Source: an uncultured Methylococcales bacterium
GTDB lineage: Bacteria; Pseudomonadota; Gammaproteobacteria; Methylococcales; Methylothermaceae
Assembly: GCA_964445885.1 (NCBI GenBank)
Contig: CAYUPV010000005.1
Span: forward strand, 1-32,000
DNA: 32,000 nt
Reading direction: 5' to 3'
The position numbers and the translations under genes are program-made. A model generated the notes under the pieces. The model worked only from the letters and a program-made list of their open reading frames with translations. It searched no databases and had not been told where the DNA came from. The number at the start of each line of letters is the position of its first letter. Position 1 is the stretch's first letter. Positions 4,459 to 30,827 of this stretch are shown piece by piece.

Positions 4459-5181
4459 CTAATCGAGCCGATCACTTGCAAAGAGTTTTTCCAGTGCCTG
4501 CCTGTCCAGAATCCGGATCCATTTGCCGCGAACCTCCAGCCATCCGTTCTTCTCGAATTGTTTGAGGGTACGGCTGACGGTGGCCAGGGCCAGGTCGAGA
4601 TAGTTGCCCAATTCCTGACGGGTGAAACCGATGGAGAATTGTTCGCCAGAAAAGCCGCGGAAGGCATAACGTTCGGACAAATCCAATAAAAAGGCCGCCA
4701 GTCTTTGTTCCGCCGGTTTTTTGATAAACAGCGTCTGGGTTCTTTGATTGCTGATGGCATCGCTGGCATGACGCAGGATCTCATCGAGCAGGGTGGGTAT
4801 CCGGAAACAGATCCGGTGCAGCTGATGAGCGGGTAGTTCACAATAACTCAGTGTATCCAATGCCTGGGCAGAGCAGCGGTGTTTCTGCTGAGCAATGGCG
4901 CCAAACCCCAGGATCTCCCCCGGCAACAGGATCTGAACGATATGCTCCTCGCTCTGTTCGTTGTGATATACCAGTTTGGCCATGCCGGATTTGATGGCGA
5001 TCAGGCCCTCGAAGGCGTCTCCATTACGAAACAGGAACTCCCCCTTGTGTAGTACCTTGCGGCGTTGCACTACATCTTCGAGTTGACTGATCTCTTCCTT
5101 GGTCAGGCCTCGGGGGAAACAGACACTGTTGAATCCACAATTTTGACAGGTGACTTGGAATCCTGGCTGTGTTGGGGTCAT
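4459..5181 (-). CDS. fnr: FNR/ANR-type oxygen-sensing Crp/Fnr family transcriptional regulator
   Basis: The N-terminal cysteine cluster CQNCGFNSVC (C-x2-C-x5-C) plus a later Cys in SYCELP parallels E. coli FNR C20/C23/C29/C122. A cNMP-binding-like fold and a C-terminal HTH (FTRQELGNYLDLALATVSRTLKQF) are present. I place the start at the ATG at 5181, because the upstream extension in the track is AT-rich promoter DNA. Confidence 0.85.
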   Translation of the reverse strand: MTPTQPGFQVTCQNCGFNSVCFPRGLTKEEISQLEDVVQRRKVLHKGEFLFRNGDAFEGLIAIKSGMAKLVYHNEQSEEHIVQILLPGEILGFGAIAQQKHRCSAQALDTLSYCELPAHQLHRICFRIPTLLDEILRHASDAISNQRTQTLFIKKPAEQRLAAFLLDLSERYAFRGFSGEQFSIGFTRQELGNYLDLALATVSRTLKQFEKNGWLEVRGKWIRILDRQALEKLFASDRLD

Positions 5182-5309
5182 GCGCTTGTTGTCATCTTTG
5201 ATTGGGGTGAAATGATACACGAGTATTTGAGTCGGAAAATCCAAAATACTGGCCTTGAAGATATTTATACCGTTATAATTTAGATTATTAATAAAAACCA
5301 CCCTCAAAC

Positions 5310-6140
5310 ATGGCCGATACACAGCTGTTATACCGCTTCAACCAATTGAGATCCTCGCTCGATCGATTCCTGACCCAGCTCCTCAGTGAAAATCATCGAG
5401 CCTGGGTGTTCGACCTCAACAAACATGAATACCTCGATCATGTTGCCCGTACGACACTGACAGACGTACTGGAGCGGCTCGAATATCAGGATGAGAGGGA
5501 TGGTCGTGTGACTGATATCTGTCCTGGAATCGTTGGCGCCTCAGGCAAATTGCTGAGGCTGGCTGGAGAACTCAATCGCCGGCGTGACGAATTCAAACAG
5601 GCGGTGCTGGCGGCAAACAGCAAAGATCGGGAACAGGCCCGTCGAATCATGACTCACCACGGGTTTCCACGGTTGCACTTCAAGCAGCTTTATCGCCATC
5701 TGCCAGTTTTATTGAAAAAGCCGGATTCGATCCGCTTCACCTGGGGAACGACCCGTTCGATCAAAAAAATCACCCGCCAGGCAGCCTACCAGAGATTGGC
5801 GAGACTGGGGGGTGAAGATCCATCTCCAGGGTATCACAAGCAACTGGAACTGTTGGCACAGCATCCCAAAGAGGAACCGATCGCCATCGTCCAGGATCTG
5901 AAGCCCCATATCAAGGCCAATGTGTGTTGGATCCAGCAGAATGGGAAGGAAAGGAATATCACCCGCAGGATGATCAGCGCTGCGTTGGCCATCCTGATTC
6001 CCATGGACCCGGGCGAAGCCTTGCCCGATTATTCCGCCGCCTTTCCAGACAGCAGGAAGCCCAGGAAACCACGCTCGGATGTGAAGATCGAAAGGGAAGC
6101 GTTTTTGCCATCCATCAGAGGGCATCGTTATTGCGAGTAA
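5310..6140 (+). CDS. tus: Tus-family (DNA replication terminus site-binding protein)-like protein, 276 aa
   Basis: Collinear motif matches to E. coli Tus as recalled from memory: ICPGIV/RLPGVL; THHGFPRLHFKQLYRHLPVL/HRHLPGLITLNAYRTLTVL; PDSIRFTWGTTRSIKKI/PATLRFGWANKHIIKNL; KPHIKANVCW/KVQPIARVWY; SAALAILIPMDPG/PTPLIALINRDNG; LPSIRGHRY/IPRLHLYV. The gene ends 16 bp from a dif site. Confidence 0.6.
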   Translation: MADTQLLYRFNQLRSSLDRFLTQLLSENHRAWVFDLNKHEYLDHVARTTLTDVLERLEYQDERDGRVTDICPGIVGASGKLLRLAGELNRRRDEFKQAVLAANSKDREQARRIMTHHGFPRLHFKQLYRHLPVLLKKPDSIRFTWGTTRSIKKITRQAAYQRLARLGGEDPSPGYHKQLELLAQHPKEEPIAIVQDLKPHIKANVCWIQQNGKERNITRRMISAALAILIPMDPGEALPDYSAAFPDSRKPRKPRSDVKIEREAFLPSIRGHRYCE

Positions 6141-23542: not shown

Positions 23543-24970
23543 CTAGGAAATCACTTCCTCCGCCACAGGTTCTTTTTTCTCCTCGAAAGGCTTCCCGGAA
23601 GGATTGGTCAACTGATCGTTGAGGCGCTGGATAAGGATATCCGCACGATTGATGATATCTTCCAACTGCTTTTGAACCTTGTCACTCCAGCCCTTGGTCT
23701 TGCCTGTACCAAAGAACCGCCAGTTCGCACAATGATTGAATGCACGCACCAGATTGAACCGCAATCCCAATTGCCTCTGGCGCTTTGCCAAACGGCTGCG
23801 ATAGTACATCTTGAAAAGGCTGGAGACGATCAAATGAAACAGTCCCAACACCACCATTCCAGCTGCCACGGCAATGGCATCGGCCATCGGGTTGAGCCAG
23901 AATCCGGTCACCAGACCAGCATATACGATCCCCGCAACCAATGCAGCGAATACCATGGTATCCAGACGCAGGGTCCAGTTCCGCCAACCTGAGAGGGCAT
24001 TCATCAGGATCGGAATCGCCTGGTTCTTGAGTTCTTTGGTTGTCAGATCCAGGGTATTGAGGATCCGGTAGGCCCGTTTGACTTCCACCTGTTTCATGCG
24101 TTTGTGGATTTCATCCAGATCTCGATCACGACGGGCTTCCAGACGTTGTTTGACGTACTCGTGCTCGGCATTCAATTCGACGTCAGGGGCAAAAATGGTG
24201 TAAAAATGAGTGACATTGAGCCCTCTTTCAGCCATTGCACTCTTCCAGGCAGCCACGACCTCGGCCAGGCTGTCCTCACGGGCCGTGACGTCGATCTGGT
24301 TGAGAATGTAGATGAATTTTTCCGAATCGTAACGGTCGACGGAGGTCTTCACCAGATATTCCAGGGTGTCACGCATGGCGCCGGGTTCCGGTCGCCGGGC
24401 ATCGAAGAAAATCAGCACCAGATCCGACACATCGATGATGTGTTTGGTGATCCTCAGGGTTGAACTGCGTTGGGCATCGGCATCGAAGCCCGGGGAATCG
24501 ATGAGGATCTTGCCTTTCAGGTGTTCGCTGTTGCAGGTTTTGAGCTGCAGATAGGCGTTGATCCGCTTGCCTTCGCCTGCAAGGGCCTCATCGATTTCCC
24601 GGCTGATCTGGTAGAACGGAAATCTTGGATCGACATCGAGGGCCAGCCCGGGTAAGGTTCTGGCCTCCGGATCCGGGCTGTAACACAGTACGGTAAACTT
24701 GTCATCGACCGCCTGAACGCCAGCGCGTTGAACCTTCTGTCCCAGAAAATGATTGATGAAAGTGGATTTCCCGGCGGAAAACAGCCCCAGAATGGAAATC
24801 AGGGGCCACCAGGGAATCTGTCGTGCCGTGGATTGATCGGGTCTGAGCAATCCCAGATCATTGGCAACGTTGTCAAGGGCCTGGAAATTCTTCGCCACAT
24901 CCACCAAAAGAGGATTTTCTTCGACGAGATGCTTTTCCAGATTCTGTACGTAGATTTGACTTGCCTGCAT
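23543..24970 (-). CDS. Dynamin-family (bacterial dynamin-like) GTPase with a C-terminal transmembrane hairpin
   Basis: G1 is GLFSAGKST, G3 is LIDSPGF and the G4-like motif is LNQID. A coiled-coil-like stalk follows. Two adjacent hydrophobic helices are present (MVFAALVAGIVYAGLVTGFWL and AIAVAAGMVVLGLFHLIVSSLF), followed by a basic tail. Confidence 0.7.
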   Translation of the reverse strand: MQASQIYVQNLEKHLVEENPLLVDVAKNFQALDNVANDLGLLRPDQSTARQIPWWPLISILGLFSAGKSTFINHFLGQKVQRAGVQAVDDKFTVLCYSPDPEARTLPGLALDVDPRFPFYQISREIDEALAGEGKRINAYLQLKTCNSEHLKGKILIDSPGFDADAQRSSTLRITKHIIDVSDLVLIFFDARRPEPGAMRDTLEYLVKTSVDRYDSEKFIYILNQIDVTAREDSLAEVVAAWKSAMAERGLNVTHFYTIFAPDVELNAEHEYVKQRLEARRDRDLDEIHKRMKQVEVKRAYRILNTLDLTTKELKNQAIPILMNALSGWRNWTLRLDTMVFAALVAGIVYAGLVTGFWLNPMADAIAVAAGMVVLGLFHLIVSSLFKMYYRSRLAKRQRQLGLRFNLVRAFNHCANWRFFGTGKTKGWSDKVQKQLEDIINRADILIQRLNDQLTNPSGKPFEEKKEPVAEEVIS

Positions 24971-26108: not shown

Positions 26109-26864
26109 TCAACTCGGACTGTAGTTCAGGGTATCCATCAAATCAATCATGAACTCCACTTCTTCCTCATCGACAAGATCCCACCCCGTCAAGCCCAGGC
26201 TCTTCAATACCCCTTTGCCCTTGATATCCTGCTCCATTGTGGTGAGCACCCGACGCATTGTTTCCACTTGGGTTCCCAGACGAGGACCGGCCATGAGAGA
26301 GTGATGAATCACCTGAATCTCACTACGCACCAACGGATGCAGCTGACTTCGGATGGGACGACTGAGTTCGTCAAAGGCCTTCTCAAGGAAGATGCCAACA
26401 TCGCACTCACCTTGCAAAATCGCTTTCGCCACCAGGACATAATTGTCGCACTGGCGAAGTTCTATGTTTCCTTGGTGGAGTCCGGCGGGTTCGAGCATGA
26501 TCATGCCCATCAGATGAACATTGGGGTCATCGGTGCTGGCGATCCTGATCCCGGAAGTTAACGATTCTACTGTCTGCATATCACTGTCGGCACGTACGGA
26601 GATCACCGCTTCATCCGCCCCACCCTTGGGCTTGACCAAGGCAGTGAATCCCTTGTCCCGCACCAACATTGAAGCATCGTAAGGATTGGCATAGATAAGA
26701 TCGAACCGGTCTTCCTCGATCGACCGGTGCAGTTGCTGGAAATTGTCCAGCAACTGCAGATGGAAAGGCTGGTCGAGGGCCCGTTGCAACCAGGTGTTGA
26801 AAATGAACCACCCGGAGAGATAATCGGGACTAAAATCCGGACTTACGCTGAATTGATAAGTCAC
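26109..26864 (-). CDS. PhnD-like (phosphonate/phosphite ABC substrate-binding fold) protein without a signal peptide, 251 aa
   Basis: The periplasmic-binding-protein type 2 pattern is present: FSVSPDFSPDYLSGWFIF..WL, DLIYANPYDA, RIASTDDPNVHLMG, DVGIF. There is no hydrophobic N-terminus. I place the start at the GTG at 26864, which overlaps the PAS gene stop (GTGA) and is preceded by GGGAGG. Confidence 0.6.
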   Translation of the reverse strand: MTYQFSVSPDFSPDYLSGWFIFNTWLQRALDQPFHLQLLDNFQQLHRSIEEDRFDLIYANPYDASMLVRDKGFTALVKPKGGADEAVISVRADSDMQTVESLTSGIRIASTDDPNVHLMGMIMLEPAGLHQGNIELRQCDNYVLVAKAILQGECDVGIFLEKAFDELSRPIRSQLHPLVRSEIQVIHHSLMAGPRLGTQVETMRRVLTTMEQDIKGKGVLKSLGLTGWDLVDEEEVEFMIDLMDTLNYSPS

Positions 26865-27361
26865 GCACCTGCCTCCCGCTCTTTTTCCCGCATGGAGGCA
26901 TACAGAAGAATACACTCCTCTACCTTACGCCGATCAGGCTTCCGCCTGACGGAGGTGTAACCCTTGATCCGTTCATTTCGGATATTGGGGATCACGGTGG
27001 CCTTGACCCAATAATAGGCGCCATCCTTGCGCAGGTTCTTGACGTACCCCTGCCAGATCTTCCCCTGCTGCACCGTTCCCCATAAATCCCGGAAGGCCGC
27101 CCTGGGCATGTCCGGATGGCGCAGAATGGAGTGAGGCGCCCCGACCAGTTCCTCCTCTAGATAACCCGACATCTCGACGAAGGAACGATTGACGTGGGTG
27201 ATGATTCCTTCGGTATCGGTCCTGGAGACGATCAGACGTCCATCGGGATAAGGGACTTCCGTCTCTGTGACCAGGACTCTACGTGCCCCCAGCCCATAGA
27301 GCTGGATAACCTGTTGCCGATATTCGCCGACAATCTCTTCGGTGTGCATGTCGCTGATCAT
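26861..27361 (-). CDS. Stand-alone PAS domain protein, Aer-type (probable flavin-binding redox sensor)
   Basis: IVSRTDTEGIITHVNRSFVEMSGYLEEELVGAPHSILRHPDMPRAAFRDLWGTVQQGKIWQGYVKNLRKDGAYYWV is collinear with the E. coli Aer N-terminal PAS as I recall it (PHNMVRHPDMPKAAFADMW...PWSGIVKNRRKNGDHYWV). The RBS GGAGAT lies upstream. Confidence 0.8.
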   Translation of the reverse strand: MISDMHTEEIVGEYRQQVIQLYGLGARRVLVTETEVPYPDGRLIVSRTDTEGIITHVNRSFVEMSGYLEEELVGAPHSILRHPDMPRAAFRDLWGTVQQGKIWQGYVKNLRKDGAYYWVKATVIPNIRNERIKGYTSVRRKPDRRKVEECILLYASMREKEREAGA

Positions 27362-27379
27362 GAGCGATCTCCGGCAAAA

Positions 27380-27742
27380 CTAGATCAACTTGGAGATACT
27401 TTCAGCCGCTCGTTTGACATCAAGAAAAATCAAACCCAGTTTAGCCCTGGGTTTTGCCAGTACGGTCAATACGGCTTCTTTACCGGCATGGGTCATGAGC
27501 ACGTACCCCTGATTACCTTTGATCAGGACTTGTTCCAGCTCGCCTCGGGCAAGTTCCTGGGAGGTACGATCCCCCAGCGACAGCATCGCGGCACTCATGG
27601 CACCGACTCTGTCTTCATCCATCATGGCAGGAAGCACTGCGGCCATCATCAGGCCATCCGTCGAGATCACACCCGAGGCCTCGATATCGGCCGAAGTACC
27701 GTTCAATTCCGTCAGGATGGATGTCAGCATATCTGCGCGCAT
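27380..27742 (-). CDS. Roadblock/LC7 domain protein (MglB/CvnB-like)
   Basis: The 120-aa protein shows the canonical Roadblock pattern: L..L.......ASGVISTDGLMMAA..P....DRVGAMSAAMLSLG......L..G.LEQVLIKG.QGYVLMTHAG...VLTVLA. The RBS GGAGGTG lies upstream. Confidence 0.8.
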   Translation of the reverse strand: MRADMLTSILTELNGTSADIEASGVISTDGLMMAAVLPAMMDEDRVGAMSAAMLSLGDRTSQELARGELEQVLIKGNQGYVLMTHAGKEAVLTVLAKPRAKLGLIFLDVKRAAESISKLI

Positions 27743-27773
27743 GATTCACCTCCAAGGCGCTGTAAAAGTAAAG

Positions 27774-28424
27774 TTAAGCCGGTACAGACACCGGAGCGTA
27801 ACGGGTCATCAAGGTCCAAACAAGATGAACAAAATCTGGATGATTGAAATGAGGGATTCCGGTCATCACCAAAGCAAAACAGTACTTGCCGATATGCAGG
27901 GGCCACACCCCCAAGCGAGTATGACCACTGGCATCCACCAGCCCCCATGCCTGGCTCCCCAAATTCAGATTGTTGAGCAGCAGCTTTTGGTGACGTTGCT
28001 GGAGGTTCATGAGATCAGCACTCAACGCCGCCAGCTCTTCTGCCGTTTCGTGGGGAAATCCACTGGAGCCGAGATAGAATCCCTGTTGATCGGCCAGCAG
28101 GGCCTTGCCATTCTCAGCAAGATTCGAGAGCAATTCAGGAAGGATATCCTCCAGCGGTTGATTCATCACCTGTAAAGGGCTATCCAGCGCTTGTAACCAG
28201 CGCATGGACTGGATGCGGCGCAACAATGCATGTGCATCTTCCAGAGTATCCTCCCCGCACCATTGCTTCAGAGTCTCCGGGCTCATCCGGGGGGTTTCCG
28301 AATAACCCAACAAATGACACAATAATCGCCTCGGAGGATCGAGTATGGGGTCCGCCACGGCATAATAGGCTCCCCCAGGGGTCGGTATCAAATACTTTAG
28401 CTCAGGAAGCGGCGAATCTGACAT
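27774..28424 (-). CDS. Hypothetical protein, 216 aa; the C-terminal half is possibly a second, divergent Roadblock/longin-like domain
   Basis: Residues from about 90 to 210 (LEDILPELLSNLAENGKALLADQQGFYLGSSGFP.ETAEELAALSADLMNL...GLVDASGHTRLGVWPLHIGKYCFALVMTG) follow the alpha-beta-beta-alpha-beta-beta-beta-alpha Roadblock pattern by eye. The strong RBS GGAGGAAAACG lies inside the 3' end of the GTPase gene, giving a 23-bp overlap. Confidence 0.45.
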   Translation of the reverse strand: MSDSPLPELKYLIPTPGGAYYAVADPILDPPRRLLCHLLGYSETPRMSPETLKQWCGEDTLEDAHALLRRIQSMRWLQALDSPLQVMNQPLEDILPELLSNLAENGKALLADQQGFYLGSSGFPHETAEELAALSADLMNLQQRHQKLLLNNLNLGSQAWGLVDASGHTRLGVWPLHIGKYCFALVMTGIPHFNHPDFVHLVWTLMTRYAPVSVPA

Positions 28425-28971
28425 CGTTTTCCTCCACCTCTAAACCAGGATCCAGATGGAACAGCAGCGCCTGCACCAACAGAGAAACATCGTTGCGACT
28501 ACGAGCGTCCACTTCCAATAGTGGCGCCCGGACACCCAGGTTTTCGATTTCCCTGTGATAAGCATCCAACGTCGGCTCGGCCTTGAGATCCATTCGGGTC
28601 ACACCGATCGCCAAGCCGGATTCATCGATGAACGAACGGAAACGATTGAGGAAAAACCGAAGATCCTGAAAAGGATCGGTGCGACTGTTGTCGACCAGCA
28701 GAATCAAACCGATCCCCCCGTTGCTCAGGATCTCCCACATGAAATCGAAACGTTCCTGTCCGGGGGTGCCATACAGATGCAGCTTCTCCCCTCCTTCCAG
28801 ACTCATGACGCCATAGTCCATGGCAACGGTGGTCTCTGGTTTGAGATTCTGCGCCATGTCACTGGCAAAGGCATCCGTTCGCACTGGCGGTTCATCGCTC
28901 AGACTGGCAATGGCAGTTGTCTTGCCTGCACCGACCGGACCTGTAAAGATCAGCTTATTGTATTTCGCCAC
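28402..28971 (-). CDS. Small Ras-superfamily GTPase of the MglA / conservon (COG2229-like) type, 189 aa
   Basis: G1 is GPVGAGKT. Switch I is ETTVAMDYG. G3 is LHLYGTPGQERF, with Thr replacing the usual Asp as in MglA LYTVPGQ. The G4 variant is VTRMD. The start codon is GTG, preceded by GGAGGATAAGGAA. Confidence 0.8.
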   Translation of the reverse strand: MAKYNKLIFTGPVGAGKTTAIASLSDEPPVRTDAFASDMAQNLKPETTVAMDYGVMSLEGGEKLHLYGTPGQERFDFMWEILSNGGIGLILLVDNSRTDPFQDLRFFLNRFRSFIDESGLAIGVTRMDLKAEPTLDAYHREIENLGVRAPLLEVDARSRNDVSLLVQALLFHLDPGLEVEENDVRFAAS

Positions 28972-28977
28972 GGTTCC

Positions 28978-30093
28978 TTATCCTCCCCTCAATCTCCGCA
29001 TGATTCTGTGCAACAGGCCTCCGGAATGCCTGGCCGGCTCTGGCATTGGAGGTGGTGCAGGTTCCTTATCGACCCGCTCAATCAGACCCACTGCCCGCGC
29101 CGCACTGATGAAGCCGAAGACATCCGCTGGCGGCAACTTGAGAACTTTCACCGCCGCCAGAGGCGTCATGGGGCGTTGATATAACAGCGATGCAATCTGC
29201 AATGCCGGTGCCGGACACCACAGTCGTGTCAGATTGGGCCAGCGTTTCAGGCGAATTGGCTGCGAAGCCTTGACGCCTCTGGGAAGCCGGCCGGCAGAAT
29301 TCCACCATGACACCTTCCAGAGAAACGCATTCATTCTCTGACTGGGTTCAGGAATCCCCTGCATCCCAACCTTGGGGTCAGGGGTGATCGTAGGGCCGGA
29401 AGCCAGTTCACCCGTCAATTGAGAAAACCTTCTGATCGGCAGGTGGCAAAATGCCTGGAGTTTCTTGTCATCGGAATCCACCCAGACCAATCGCTTATGA
29501 GGGAAGACATAGATGGGTTCCCAGCCCGTATCAATTCGCAAAGTGATTCCAGTGGTCACCGCCTGACGATAGGCTTTGATCAGCAACCCCTGCAGATACT
29601 CGACCGGTTCGTAATACTTGGCCGAGAAAGAAGTCACTGAATGGACAATCCTTTCTTGTGCCTTATGCTTGGCGGCGACATTCATAGCCGCCTCGTGCAG
29701 CCGCTTTCCCTGTTTCTCCTTCTTCGCAACCACGATCTTGAGATCCTGTTGCTGATTCAGCTGCTCCAATTGATGTTGCGGATTCCGTACCTTCTCCAGG
29801 GTATCGGCCAGGATCCGGGTCTGCAGGGGTTTTTTGAGCCAGATACCCTCTTCGTATGAGGGTTCATTGATCGCCAGGAGAATGACTCGCTGGTCCGGGC
29901 GTTGTTGGCGCTGATGACGCAGCAGATCTTCAGAACCATAGCCATCGAGATCGATGATACAGACATCGGCTTGGTCGGCCTCCACCAGCATCCCGGAATG
30001 ATAGTCCTTTTCCACAAATTGCAGCAGGAGATCATGGAATCGGGTTGACTGTCCCAGAACTGCGATTTTCAAAGGCGTCTTATTCATTGTCAT
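28978..30093 (-). CDS. Atypical receiver (pseudo-REC) domain protein with an uncharacterised central region and a winged-helix-like C-terminus, 371 aa
   Basis: The N-terminal (beta-alpha)5 pattern is KIAVLG / DVCIIDLD / RVILLA / LKKPL. It lacks the acidic pair after beta1 (LGQS instead of DD) and the T/S after beta4. A Gln-rich linker follows. The C-terminal PALQIASLLYQRPMTPLAAVKVLKLPPADVFGFISAARAVGLIERV resembles an HTH or winged helix. The ATG abuts the upstream gene stop (TGAATG). Confidence 0.55.
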   Translation of the reverse strand: MTMNKTPLKIAVLGQSTRFHDLLLQFVEKDYHSGMLVEADQADVCIIDLDGYGSEDLLRHQRQQRPDQRVILLAINEPSYEEGIWLKKPLQTRILADTLEKVRNPQHQLEQLNQQQDLKIVVAKKEKQGKRLHEAAMNVAAKHKAQERIVHSVTSFSAKYYEPVEYLQGLLIKAYRQAVTTGITLRIDTGWEPIYVFPHKRLVWVDSDDKKLQAFCHLPIRRFSQLTGELASGPTITPDPKVGMQGIPEPSQRMNAFLWKVSWWNSAGRLPRGVKASQPIRLKRWPNLTRLWCPAPALQIASLLYQRPMTPLAAVKVLKLPPADVFGFISAARAVGLIERVDKEPAPPPMPEPARHSGGLLHRIMRRLRGG

Positions 30094-30777
30094 TCAAAGA
30101 CCTTGTGCTTTAAACCATTCAGCCGTCTCCCGCCATGCGGAATCCGAAATCCCTTTCGCTTCGAGATGCCCATAACTACACCAAAATCTTTCGGCTTCAT
30201 TGGTTGCCTGGTAAATCTCCAGCAACTCTTGACGAACCACCGTGATCTCCGGCGTTTGGATCAGTACGTCCTCCAACATTTCCATGGCCTGGTCTAATTG
30301 TCCGGCCTCGAGACATTCCTTAGCCACCACCACCTGATCATAGGAAGAACTTTTATCACCTGGGAGCTCATTCAGGAACAGCACCTCTCCCCAGACCCCC
30401 TCTTGAAACAATGAGCTGGGTGAGAAGGGGATACTCTGTAAAGTCAACTGCCCAACAAGATATCGGTGCAGCGTTTCTTGATATTCGGTTGGCAGCCATT
30501 TTCGGGCAGCCATAAGCATCCGCTGTTGTAGCGGCCGTCCTCTGTTTTTCAGTATCCATAACAGGTCAACCAGGGATCCGAATACCGCCTCGCCATTATG
30601 GAAGGCAGCCGCCTTGATCCGACAGACATGGAGGGCCAGATTTTCGGGCTTTCGCCCTACCTGCCTGGTCAAAAAGTCGTAGGATTGCTGTTTTAGGCTT
30701 TCAGGTACCTGCAAAGCCAAAAAGTCATCTAGATGAAACGCTGGCTCTGCCCGCCAGACATCTGGACTTATCGCCAT
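30094..30777 (-). CDS. Hypothetical helical protein with a TPR-like C-terminus, 227 aa; first gene of the GTPase operon
   Basis: This is the only plausible part of track ORF 30094..31767. From MAISPDVWRAEP onward the sequence is protein-like, with a TPR-like VVAKECLEAGQLDQAMEMLEDVL. There is no in-frame ATG, GTG or TTG between 30777 and the U32 stop. No clear SD precedes the ATG, so the start is uncertain. Confidence 0.55.
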   Translation of the reverse strand: MAISPDVWRAEPAFHLDDFLALQVPESLKQQSYDFLTRQVGRKPENLALHVCRIKAAAFHNGEAVFGSLVDLLWILKNRGRPLQQRMLMAARKWLPTEYQETLHRYLVGQLTLQSIPFSPSSLFQEGVWGEVLFLNELPGDKSSSYDQVVVAKECLEAGQLDQAMEMLEDVLIQTPEITVVRQELLEIYQATNEAERFWCSYGHLEAKGISDSAWRETAEWFKAQGL

Positions 30778-30796
30778 AGGACACTGGACATGTTGT

Positions 30797-30827
30797 TTTA
30801 TACCTTGATAAGCATAGCAGCTGTCAA
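30797..30827 (-). promoter_or_regulatory. Candidate sigma70-type promoter for the GTPase operon
   Basis: The minus strand reads TTGACA-N19-TATAAA in the 145-bp gap after the U32 gene. The spacer is long, and the -10 element ends only 19 nt before the ATG, which would imply a very short leader. Confidence 0.3.

Follow-up and report, generated by a model that had tools for sequence, protein, structure and literature searches.

A Group 3 MglA-type GTPase operon of a Methylothermaceae methanotroph, probably extended with cytoplasmic sensor genes of its own

The first 32,000 nucleotides of contig CAYUPV010000005.1 (GenBank assembly GCA_964445885.1), which derive from an uncultured Methylothermaceae bacterium and are referred to here as the window, carry at positions 26109-30777 of the minus strand seven consecutive, co-directional genes (g1 to g7) that were recognized in a list of open reading frames (ORFs) and by reading the sequence. 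An initial annotation had described them as one unit built around a small GTPase and two Roadblock proteins. With a probability of roughly 60%, we regard the cluster as a Group 3 MglA-type GTPase signalling operon of this methanotroph that has been extended with a cytoplasmic sensor of its own. The seven genes listed below are each represented by an ORF and by a public gene call, while the motif upstream of g1 was read from the sequence.

30797-30827, minus strand: possible promoter or operator upstream of g1, TTGACA-N19-TATAAA
30094-30777, minus strand: g1, 227 amino acids (aa), first gene of the unit
28978-30093, minus strand: g2, 371 aa, pseudo-receiver plus winged-helix domain of unknown function (DUF), no Pfam or NCBIfam family
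28402-28971, minus strand: g3, 189 aa, GTG start, MglA-family small GTPase
27774-28424, minus strand: g4, 216 aa, helical domain plus Roadblock domain, first MglB-like partner
27380-27742, minus strand: g5, 120 aa, canonical Roadblock/LC7 protein (MglB-like)
26861-27361, minus strand: g6, 166 aa, stand-alone Aer-type PAS protein
26109-26864, minus strand: g7, 251 aa, GTG start, PhnD-fold protein

From g1 to g7, the junctions between consecutive genes measure 0, +6, -23, +31, +18 and -4 bp: g1 and g2 meet in a TGAATG at 30096-30091, the start of g4 overlaps g3 by 23 nucleotides, and the start of g7 overlaps the stop codon of g6 in a GTGA at 26864-26861. These junctions and the common direction of the genes had been reported in the initial annotation, and they are borne out both by our reading of the sequence and by an independent public gene call for an identical metagenome contig (JGI 3300023444). 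The latter gives the same seven product lengths (227, 371, 189, 216, 120, 166 and 251 aa), with a U32 peptidase gene upstream and a convergent cation diffusion facilitator (CDF) transporter gene downstream of the cluster. In the mechanical ORF list, g1 and g7 also appear with in-frame upstream extensions, at 557 and 268 aa, respectively; the N-termini of the homologues favour the short forms. The GGAG-type ribosome-binding sites claimed for most of the starts are clear at five of the seven (g3 to g7); g1 has none, and g2 is coupled to it via the TGAATG. Scans for promoter and terminator consensus sequences returned sites at chance level (6 versus 4.7 expected, and 7 versus 5.8 expected, respectively) and are no evidence for or against termination within the cluster; our reading of the genes as a single transcript is therefore founded on the junctions and the conserved synteny. 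One of the seven terminator-like matches is a 6-bp G+C-rich hairpin followed by a T-rich stretch at 27779-27794 on the minus strand, at the extreme end of g4 and before the 31-bp gap to g5. No Rfam match to a structured RNA was found in the region. An anti-phage defence system was considered as well, and it was rejected because none of the seven proteins has a match in PADLOC.

A profile of g2 retrieved 222 loci among the GTDB species representatives; the best 80 of these were fetched and their ORFs searched with the proteins of the window, and the locus counts given below for the individual families refer to these best 80 of the 222 loci. The core g2-g3-g4-g5 is present in 58 of the 80 species loci and all seven families in 40, nearly always in the order seen in the window. 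A reciprocal search of metagenome contigs, starting from g7, recovered all seven families in 34 of the 36 loci with enough upstream sequence. That the seven families should recur together in other genomes had been put forward as a check in the initial annotation, and both searches answer it positively; a chance juxtaposition is ruled out by the synteny in 80 genome loci and 80 metagenome loci. The gene order is kept across orders of the Gamma- and Betaproteobacteria, the carriers including Methylothermaceae, Methylocaldum, Crenotrichaceae, Chromatiaceae, Thiodiazotropha/Sedimenticola and Thiothrix, as well as Competibacteraceae, Halothiobacillaceae, Methylophagaceae, Alcanivoracaceae and Dechloromonas. 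The nearest homologues reside in the Methylothermaceae, and related loci occur in the Methylococcales, Chromatiales, Thiotrichales, Acidithiobacillus, Rhodocyclales and Neisseriales. Collectively, the junctions and the synteny support the earlier view of one conserved unit around a GTPase with a TxxGQ motif and two Roadblock proteins.

In domain searches, g3 matches PF03029 at 7.6e-11 and Ras at 6e-5, and its best solved relatives are Rab1 proteins (2.6e-5). The motifs GPVGAGKTT, TTVAxDYG, GTPGQERF, TxMD and VDAR are kept over 72 homologues; in g3 itself, G2 and G3 read ETTVAMDYG and YGTPGQERF, each at least 90% conserved in these homologues, whilst G4 reads GVTRMD, without Lys, and G5 reads VDARS. 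By its sequence motifs, g3 is thus marked as an MglA-family GTPase with the motif set of Groups 2-5 and of Group 3. Directly downstream of it lie g4 and g5. The latter matches Robl_LC7 at 5.6e-16 and is unusually conserved, with a median identity of 81% to 61 homologues from several orders; its STDG motif is the counterpart of the Asp-Gly pair conserved in MglB proteins coupled to Groups 2-5. The sequence of g4 matches Robl_LC7 at merely 0.003. Its AlphaFold2 model (predicted local distance difference test score [pLDDT] 91, predicted template modelling score 0.88) consists of an N-terminal helical domain and a Roadblock domain, and the top Foldseek match of this model is MglB from T. thermophilus (1j3w; 8.8e-5), followed by MglB from M. 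xanthus, the CvnB-like Streptomyces Roadblock protein 3kye and LAMTOR proteins. The predicted fold confirms the Roadblock domain of g4, so that g4 and g5 represent two Roadblock (MglB-like) proteins.

This set of genes corresponds to a system that was defined computationally by Wuichet and Sogaard-Andersen in 2014 (PMC4316618), the Group 3 MglA system of beta- and gammaproteobacteria with the gene order DUF>MglA>MglB>MglB, which is found in many members of these classes, including Neisseria and Xanthomonas. The GTPase of this system is characterised by TT (G2), GTPGQ (G3), a G4 motif that lacks Lys, and DAR (G5), and its gene is coupled to one or two MglB (Roadblock) genes. In the DUF, which no Pfam model covers, a variable linker joins a receiver-like N-terminal part to a winged-helix C-terminus; this architecture came from Phyre2 prediction, and a DNA-binding role was suggested (PMC4316618). 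The table of that survey includes DUF>MglA>MglB>MglB loci of Methylomonas (M. methanica, Metme_1347), Methylomicrobium (M. alcaliphilum, MEALZ_2464) and Acidithiobacillus, the MglA of the last being 188 aa long; the Acidithiobacillus locus in our set (L082) has homologues of g2 to g5, with a g3 homologue of exactly this length. In the window, g3 has TT in G2 (and no intrinsic Arg finger), GTPGQ in G3, a G4 that departs from [NT]KxD in having no Lys, and DAR in G5. Two Roadblock genes, g4 and g5, are coupled to it, the adjacent g2 encodes a Pfam-less protein with a receiver-like domain, a linker and a winged-helix-like end, and the host belongs to the beta/gamma-proteobacterial range of the group. 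Judged by their order, motifs and DUF architecture, g2 to g5 are a Group 3 MglA system, and the statement of the initial annotation that the cluster cannot be assigned to any named system consequently falls. The same annotation had offered its reading to be abandoned should the cluster match an already characterised named system, and this has come true by half: the core is named and catalogued, yet it is not biochemically characterised. Our literature searches for a characterised version returned the 2014 survey and a study on Snodgrassella alone, and no biochemistry on any Group 3 system.

The protein encoded by g2 belongs to no family of Pfam or NCBIfam, and a check of 34 members of its family against Pfam gave no assignment beyond the weak matches mentioned below. 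Its AlphaFold2 model (pLDDT 85) shows a receiver fold, a linker at residues 112-154 that is disordered in the model and variable in the family alignment, and an alpha/beta domain that ends in helix-helix-helix-strand (residues 297-340). Foldseek matches to this model are receiver domains, with E-values down to 3.5e-5 and including the pseudo-receiver of CikA, and the template-modelling scores to single-domain receivers are about 0.6; only the receiver part was matched, and the structure search found no solved winged helix for the C-terminal fold. Profile searches of the PDB gave marginal matches at best for g2, g4 and g7. The family alignment shows D50 and K88-P89 without exception and D48 with a conservation of at least 90%, so that the Asp at the end of beta3 and the Lys at the end of beta5 that are expected of a receiver are present. 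Where the Mg2+-binding acidic pair would stand, after beta1, there is LG instead; its glycine, G14, is conserved to at least 90%, no acidic residue follows, and g2 is therefore called a pseudo-receiver; the correspondence of this LG to D12/D13 of CheY is one that we infer from the strand order of the model. All members of the family close with G[LF]LxRILxRL, which is preceded by a Pro-rich linker. This tail, with a median hydrophobic moment of 0.85 and a net charge of +4 to +5, is more amphipathic than any other segment of the protein and suggests a basic amphipathic helix for membrane or partner binding.

The g2 family is large, with 2507 cluster representatives at E<=1e-3 and 804 at 1e-30. 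Some of its members (P0177, P0195) have tandem duplicate receiver-like domains, and others have acidic linkers of 200-300 residues; the C-terminal amphipathic tail is kept in all. The long members have no Pfam domains and no fusion to g1, g4 or g7. In six Denitromonas/Zoogloeaceae loci (L056, L058-L060, L070, L071), neither a GTPase nor a Roadblock gene could be detected alongside the g2 homologue. It is flanked on one side, in L058-L060, L070 and L071, by a 900-aa protein in which TIR-, CHAT- and LysM-like segments can be discerned by eye, and on the other, in L056, L058, L059, L070 and L071, by a large putative PAS-GGDEF-EAL protein.

The C-terminal region of g2 bears on an alternative in which the parts are the same and g2 is a DNA-binding transcription factor under the control of GTP-bound g3, governing a redox-responsive regulon, as had been suggested by Wuichet and Sogaard-Andersen (PMC4316618). 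The helix-helix-helix-strand arrangement is typical of a winged helix, and some g2 family members have weak TrmB, HTH_29 and SmtB-type matches. However, the helix presumed to do the recognition (xVFxFISAAxALGLIE) is rich in Ala and hydrophobic and lacks any conserved basic or polar residue, which is untypical for DNA reading; a similar helical domain is fused to the Roadblock domain of g4 and points to protein-protein use; and the amphipathic basic tail after the Pro-rich linker better fits membrane or partner binding. The DNA upstream of g1 has to be considered here as well. The right end of the initially annotated span, position 30827, is the first base of the TTGACA-N19-TATAAA motif, and within this motif lies a 14-nucleotide element, AGCTGCTATGCTTA (30809-30822, minus strand), that includes a CAGCTG palindrome. 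It occurs once in the window (0.04 expected) and is invariant in the two nearest species loci (L004, 9266-9279; L005, 5310-5323), while the proteins of the three species that share it are only about 60% identical and the surrounding intergenic DNA is unconserved. From its conservation, AGCTGCTATGCTTA may be a promoter or an operator; the promoter scan, which used spacers of 16-18 nucleotides, did not report the N19 motif. An autoregulatory operator with such a palindrome would suit a DNA-binding g2, but the element is common to the closest relatives only and is absent from all more distant loci. Taken together, we consider a role of g2 as a transcription factor to be quite unlikely.

The first gene of the unit, g1, adjoins g2 in most related loci and encodes a helical protein whose C-terminal motif matches TPR_19 (tetratricopeptide repeat, TPR) at 0.003 as a single sequence. 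With the family profile, a kinesin-light-chain TPR is matched at 5e-4, the C-terminal TPR of FimV (4mal) at 2.7e-3, and TPRs of the PilW/PilF type weakly too; the conserved blocks of the family alignment are HVxRI, LYGALLDLF and GQIDxAxxLLE. These matches weakly suggest a TPR-like C-terminus.

The last two genes of the unit are of the sensor type. In domain searches, g6 matches PAS_3 at 1.5e-14; against the PAS domain of E. coli Aer (8dik) it scores 4.1e-36, with 44% identity over 121 ungapped columns that include RHPDMP, and it also matches the flavin adenine dinucleotide (FAD)-binding PAS domains of MmoS (7e-27) and NifL (5e-14). We found only PAS-family matches in its 166 residues and no membrane anchor, HAMP domain or methyl-accepting chemotaxis protein (MCP) domain. 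It is hence probably an FAD-binding PAS protein of the Aer type, and as a stand-alone protein that lacks the anchor, HAMP and MCP parts it should signal to a partner different from that of Aer.

The protein encoded by g7 matches PF12974 (Phosphonate-bd) at 2.6e-39, its 135.5 bits lying far above the cut-off of 27, whereas its 17.8 bits against the NCBIfam transporter model TIGR01098 fall short of the 112 required there. Its closest solved relative is ArrX, at merely 1.5e-3. The family begins at MxYxFTVSPDF without a hydrophobic leader or signal peptide, and three homologues have an N-terminal STAS domain, from which g7 is predicted to be cytoplasmic. No ABC permease or ATPase gene is present in the cluster or adjoins it; a transport role of g7 is ruled out by this finding, by the missing signal peptide and by the score below the TIGR01098 cut-off. 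The protein contains an acidic TDDPD segment. The matching position of PhnD presumably holds the Ser/Thr-rich anion-binding residues, and the acidic segment therefore argues against a phosph(on)ate ligand; a role of g7 as an adaptor may be just as possible as one in small-molecule input. The domain and fold searches thus bear out the parts list of the initial annotation, which had named a protein with receiver-like and winged-helix parts, an Aer-type PAS and a cytoplasmic PhnD-fold protein.

Comparison of the related loci reveals that the sensor position of the operon is modular, being occupied by PAS plus PhnD, by protoglobin, by CZB, or by a STAS-PhnD fusion with a SpoIIE phosphatase. The genes g6 and g7 are found together in 43 of the 80 loci, and g6 is never found alone. 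Protoglobin genes (Pfam, 2.8e-23) occur in 15 loci, between g4 and g5 or after g5, and genes for CZB zinc-binding domains (3e-14) in 11 loci, in or directly after the cluster; examples of such inserted stand-alone protoglobin or CZB genes are located at 12399-12962 in L026, 12631-13203 in L009, 12807-13163 in L044 and 11882-12241 in L023. Four Methylococcales-type loci (L012-L015; for instance, L013, 3-2758) have no PAS gene and carry, upstream of g1, a gene for a 393-aa STAS-PhnD-like fusion that is preceded by one for a large SpoIIE-phosphatase protein with a kinase-like ATPase domain; judged by these domains, partner-switching components are joined to the GTPase operon in these four loci. 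At least one sensor gene of these types is present in 39 of the 44 well-flanked core loci. PAS-GGDEF-EAL genes lie near the cluster in 15 loci, which is suggestive at best; we do not build on them, given that genes of this kind are common and that the loci cluster phylogenetically.

The adjacency of g6 and g7 to the GTPase genes could also be that of two unrelated neighbours, a Group 3 MglA operon (g1-g5) and an independent g6-g7 pair that serves solute uptake or its regulation. The Pfam family of g7 is, after all, that of ABC-transporter binding proteins; the pair stands without GTPase genes nearby in three metagenome contigs (L112, L129, L130) and is duplicated in tandem in L090, and some core loci have no g6-g7 pair. 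Against this stand the same order and strand adjacency of the pair in more than half of the species loci, across several orders, and in nearly all of the loci reached from the g7 side, the gap of 18 bp between g5 and g6, the insertion of other sensor genes within the cluster, the features of g7 that speak against transport, and the placement of a PhnD-like domain at the other end of the cluster, as the STAS fusion, in L012-L015. We therefore hold two unrelated units to be highly improbable. The g6-g7 pair thus has the character of a module in itself, one that in most but not all cases is attached to the GTPase operon.

Three individual loci deserve mention in their own right. In L024 (11543-15704; a Methylomarinum metagenome-assembled genome [MAG]), the cluster ends after g2, and several transposase-like genes come next, as though insertion sequences had disrupted this copy. 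In L044 (13700-15000; a MAG of Dechloromonas phosphorivorans), the PAS gene is separated from the PhnD-like gene by some 1.3 kb of low-complexity DNA with an extremely high G+C content, in which several frames are open and translate into sequences rich in Pro, Gly and Arg; the PhnD-like ORF is cut to 217 aa, and the stretch may be an assembly artefact of a long-read contig. The gene lengths and scores of L021, from a MAG labelled Methyloversatilis universalis, a betaproteobacterium, are almost those of the Methylocaldum loci L017 and L018, which suggests a binning error or a recent transfer.

The data lend themselves to a model of an extended Group 3 operon in which the redox state of a flavin bound by the PAS protein g6, together with the PhnD-fold protein g7, would report the redox or O2 status of the cell, with g7 serving as an adaptor, a ligand sensor, or both. 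The existence of the STAS-PhnD fusion suggests that the PhnD-fold protein might be the common transducer to which the input domain binds. The redox/O2 signal would then pass to the g4/g5 Roadblock pair, which, by analogy with MglB and Ragulator, would set the guanosine triphosphate (GTP)/guanosine diphosphate state of g3. In its GTP-bound form, g3 would act through the pseudo-receiver scaffold g2, for which the tail suggests membrane or partner tethering, and g1 would be a TPR-like adaptor. No phosphotransfer would take place in this pathway; the missing acidic pair of g2 and the missing kinase argue against it. The output might lie in transcription, in polarity or pili, or in membrane processes.

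Several observations weigh against this extended reading and have to be set beside it. Five core loci (L045, L046, L076, L079, L082) have no sensor gene nearby, and these, together with the three g6-g7 pairs mentioned above that lack GTPase genes, mean that the sensor link is frequent rather than obligatory. The G4 motif of g3 is without the usual Lys, and GTP binding by Group 3 proteins is itself a presumption. That g6 binds FAD and that g7 has a ligand is suggested by their similarity to other proteins, and the TDDPD segment allows more than one role for g7. The assignment to Group 3 is one by motifs, gene order, DUF architecture and host, and the proposed flow of information from the sensors via the Roadblock proteins and the GTPase to g2 is drawn only by analogy with MglB/MglA and Ragulator/Rag.

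The same parts might instead have cell polarity or a type IV pilus-dependent surface behaviour as their output, as MglA does in Myxococcus and Bdellovibrio, in which case the redox sensors would lend it a steering akin to energy taxis; the FimV-like TPR of g1 and the amphipathic tail of g2 would then provide targeting to the pole or the membrane. The three kinds of sensor in these clusters, Aer-type PAS, globin and CZB, serve receptors for aerotaxis and energy taxis as their cytoplasmic input domains, as they do in Aer, HemAT and TlpD. The weak matches of the g1 profile to FimV and to PilW/PilF-type TPRs point in the same direction, and three of the four loci from Crenothrix and Methylobacter (L031, L038, L041) have a gene for an MCP upstream of the cluster. 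Moreover, the sole genetics on Group 3 comes from Snodgrassella, in which mutation of an orphan Group 3 mglB led to better gut colonisation and the gene was also linked to flares in soft agar (PMC11112851). This result was obtained with an orphan MglB, however, and the link to pili was argued and not shown. The TPR matches are weak, g3 has neither the arginine finger nor the TVPGQ of Group 1, RomR and RomX are not present, and domain searches found no motility, pilus, flagellar or chemotaxis gene in the 32-kb window. An output in polarity or pilus-dependent behaviour is accordingly, in our estimation, unlikely, and we retain the reading of a Group 3 operon extended with a cytoplasmic sensor.

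The remainder of the window contains housekeeping genes only. Two ORFs may be pointed out. One, of 276 aa, at 5310-6140 on the plus strand, has a match of 7.7e-12 to the Ter family of Pfam (Tus, the DNA replication terminus site-binding protein) that is confined to profile positions 102-184, and adjoins a gene for a Crp/FNR-type regulator (4459-5322). Tus-like proteins are known mainly from Enterobacterales, and one in the Methylothermaceae is unexpected. The other, at 23543-24970 on the minus strand, encodes a GTPase of the dynamin family (475 aa; Dynamin_N, 5e-14) that is hydrophobic near residues 345-395; this protein has weak PADLOC matches to LeoBC (1.8e-8) and LeoA (3.9e-4), and its gene adjoins the CDF transporter gene in the window and in the Methylothermaceae loci L004, L005, L006 and L008.

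To our knowledge, the input signals of bacterial Ras-like GTPases are largely unknown beyond Myxococcus (Frz) and the actinobacterial conservons (a kinase-like sensor). The operon-borne, exchangeable O2/redox sensor genes of methanotrophs, sulfur oxidisers and their relatives offer a concrete hypothesis for the input of Group 3, and they do so in tractable organisms such as Methylomicrobium, Methylomonas, Thiothrix and purple sulfur bacteria of the Allochromatium type. Functions would thereby be given to three unannotated families: that of g2, with its approximately 2500 cluster representatives and no Pfam model, that of g1, and the cytoplasmic PhnD-fold proteins. As a generalization, which we put forward tentatively and hold to be possible rather than probable, Group 3 operons might constitute a widespread kinase-free pathway in which soluble O2/redox sensors, be they a flavin PAS with its PhnD-fold adaptor, a haem protoglobin, a zinc-binding CZB or a STAS partner switch, would work directly upon a Roadblock heterodimer; the nucleotide state of a Ras-like GTPase would thereby be set, and this GTPase would control a membrane-tethered pseudo-receiver scaffold. 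If true, this would be a prokaryotic counterpart, in its logic, of Rag-Ragulator nutrient sensing and a third general signalling architecture beside two-component and chemosensory systems.

The initial annotation had likened the cluster to the MglA/MglB module of Myxococcus and to the conservons, and what has stood of this is the shared logic, not the membership. In common with the Group 1 module of Myxococcus, the cluster has a GTPase with a Thr-for-Asp switch II and a Roadblock-fold regulator, a partner with a receiver domain and a second Roadblock paralogue. TPR-type effectors are known from Group 1 MglA modules too, namely SgmX and the TPR partner of Bdellovibrio. The partners of the Myxococcus module are dispersed, whereas here they are encoded in one operon; Frz-type chemosensory input is not present, and the receiver-like domain is without the acidic pair. 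A Myxococcus-type module is ruled out, as g3 has no intrinsic arginine finger and GTPGQ instead of TVPGQ.

The likeness to the conservons (CvnA-D) consists of an operon-encoded GTPase of the PF03029 type whose G4 is without Lys and whose G5 is DAR, a Roadblock protein and a further small partner, and in both conservon and Mfp systems the GTPase is taken as the output of a sensory system. The GTPase and the CvnB Roadblock protein have their counterparts in g3 and g5, at the PF03029 and Robl_LC7 scores given above, and 3kye is among the fold matches of g4. Nevertheless, the cluster has two Roadblock proteins, a proteobacterial host, and soluble PAS, globin or CZB sensors in place of a membrane kinase. 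No HisKA or HATPase domain, and thus no CvnA, was found in the seven proteins or the neighbouring genes of the window; the earlier statement that neither a histidine kinase nor a motility gene accompanies the cluster accordingly holds for the whole 32 kb. DUF742 (CvnC) gave no match at E<=1 in the seven proteins, nor did it match any of the 34 g2 family members. With neither a kinase nor DUF742, membership among the conservons is ruled out.

Of the sensor-type proteins, g6 shares with E. coli Aer the PAS of the FAD type and lacks the membrane anchor, the HAMP domain and the MCP domain of the latter. The fold of g7 is that of the PhnD/AioX/ArrX family (PF12974), from which g7 differs in being predicted to be cytoplasmic, in having no ABC partners and in a similarity to solved members that is marginal (1.5e-3). 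AioX and ArrX illustrate that the PhnD fold can serve as a sensor rather than as a transport component. The Rag-Ragulator/GATOR system resembles our model in that Roadblock-fold dimers regulate small GTPases, small-molecule sensors are soluble and the scaffold is membrane-tethered; this likeness is one of logic, with homology shown only for the Roadblock and GTPase folds. That a haem sensor can be coupled to a Roadblock domain has, by analogy, a precedent in the natural globin-Roadblock fusion HGbRL from Methylacidiphilum (PMC4476040).

The closest comparison remains that with Group 3 as published, which consists of three to four genes, with no input named and no further conserved neighbours (PMC4316618). 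The operon described here has three more conserved genes, those for the TPR-like, the Aer-type PAS and the cytoplasmic PhnD-fold proteins, and in its relatives protoglobin, CZB or STAS-PhnD plus SpoIIE components are swapped in. Our literature searches returned no description of PAS, PhnD-like, TPR-like, protoglobin or CZB components of Group 3, and the three extra genes thus appear to make up a previously undescribed, sensor-bearing extended form of the Group 3 system that is tightly conserved with its core.

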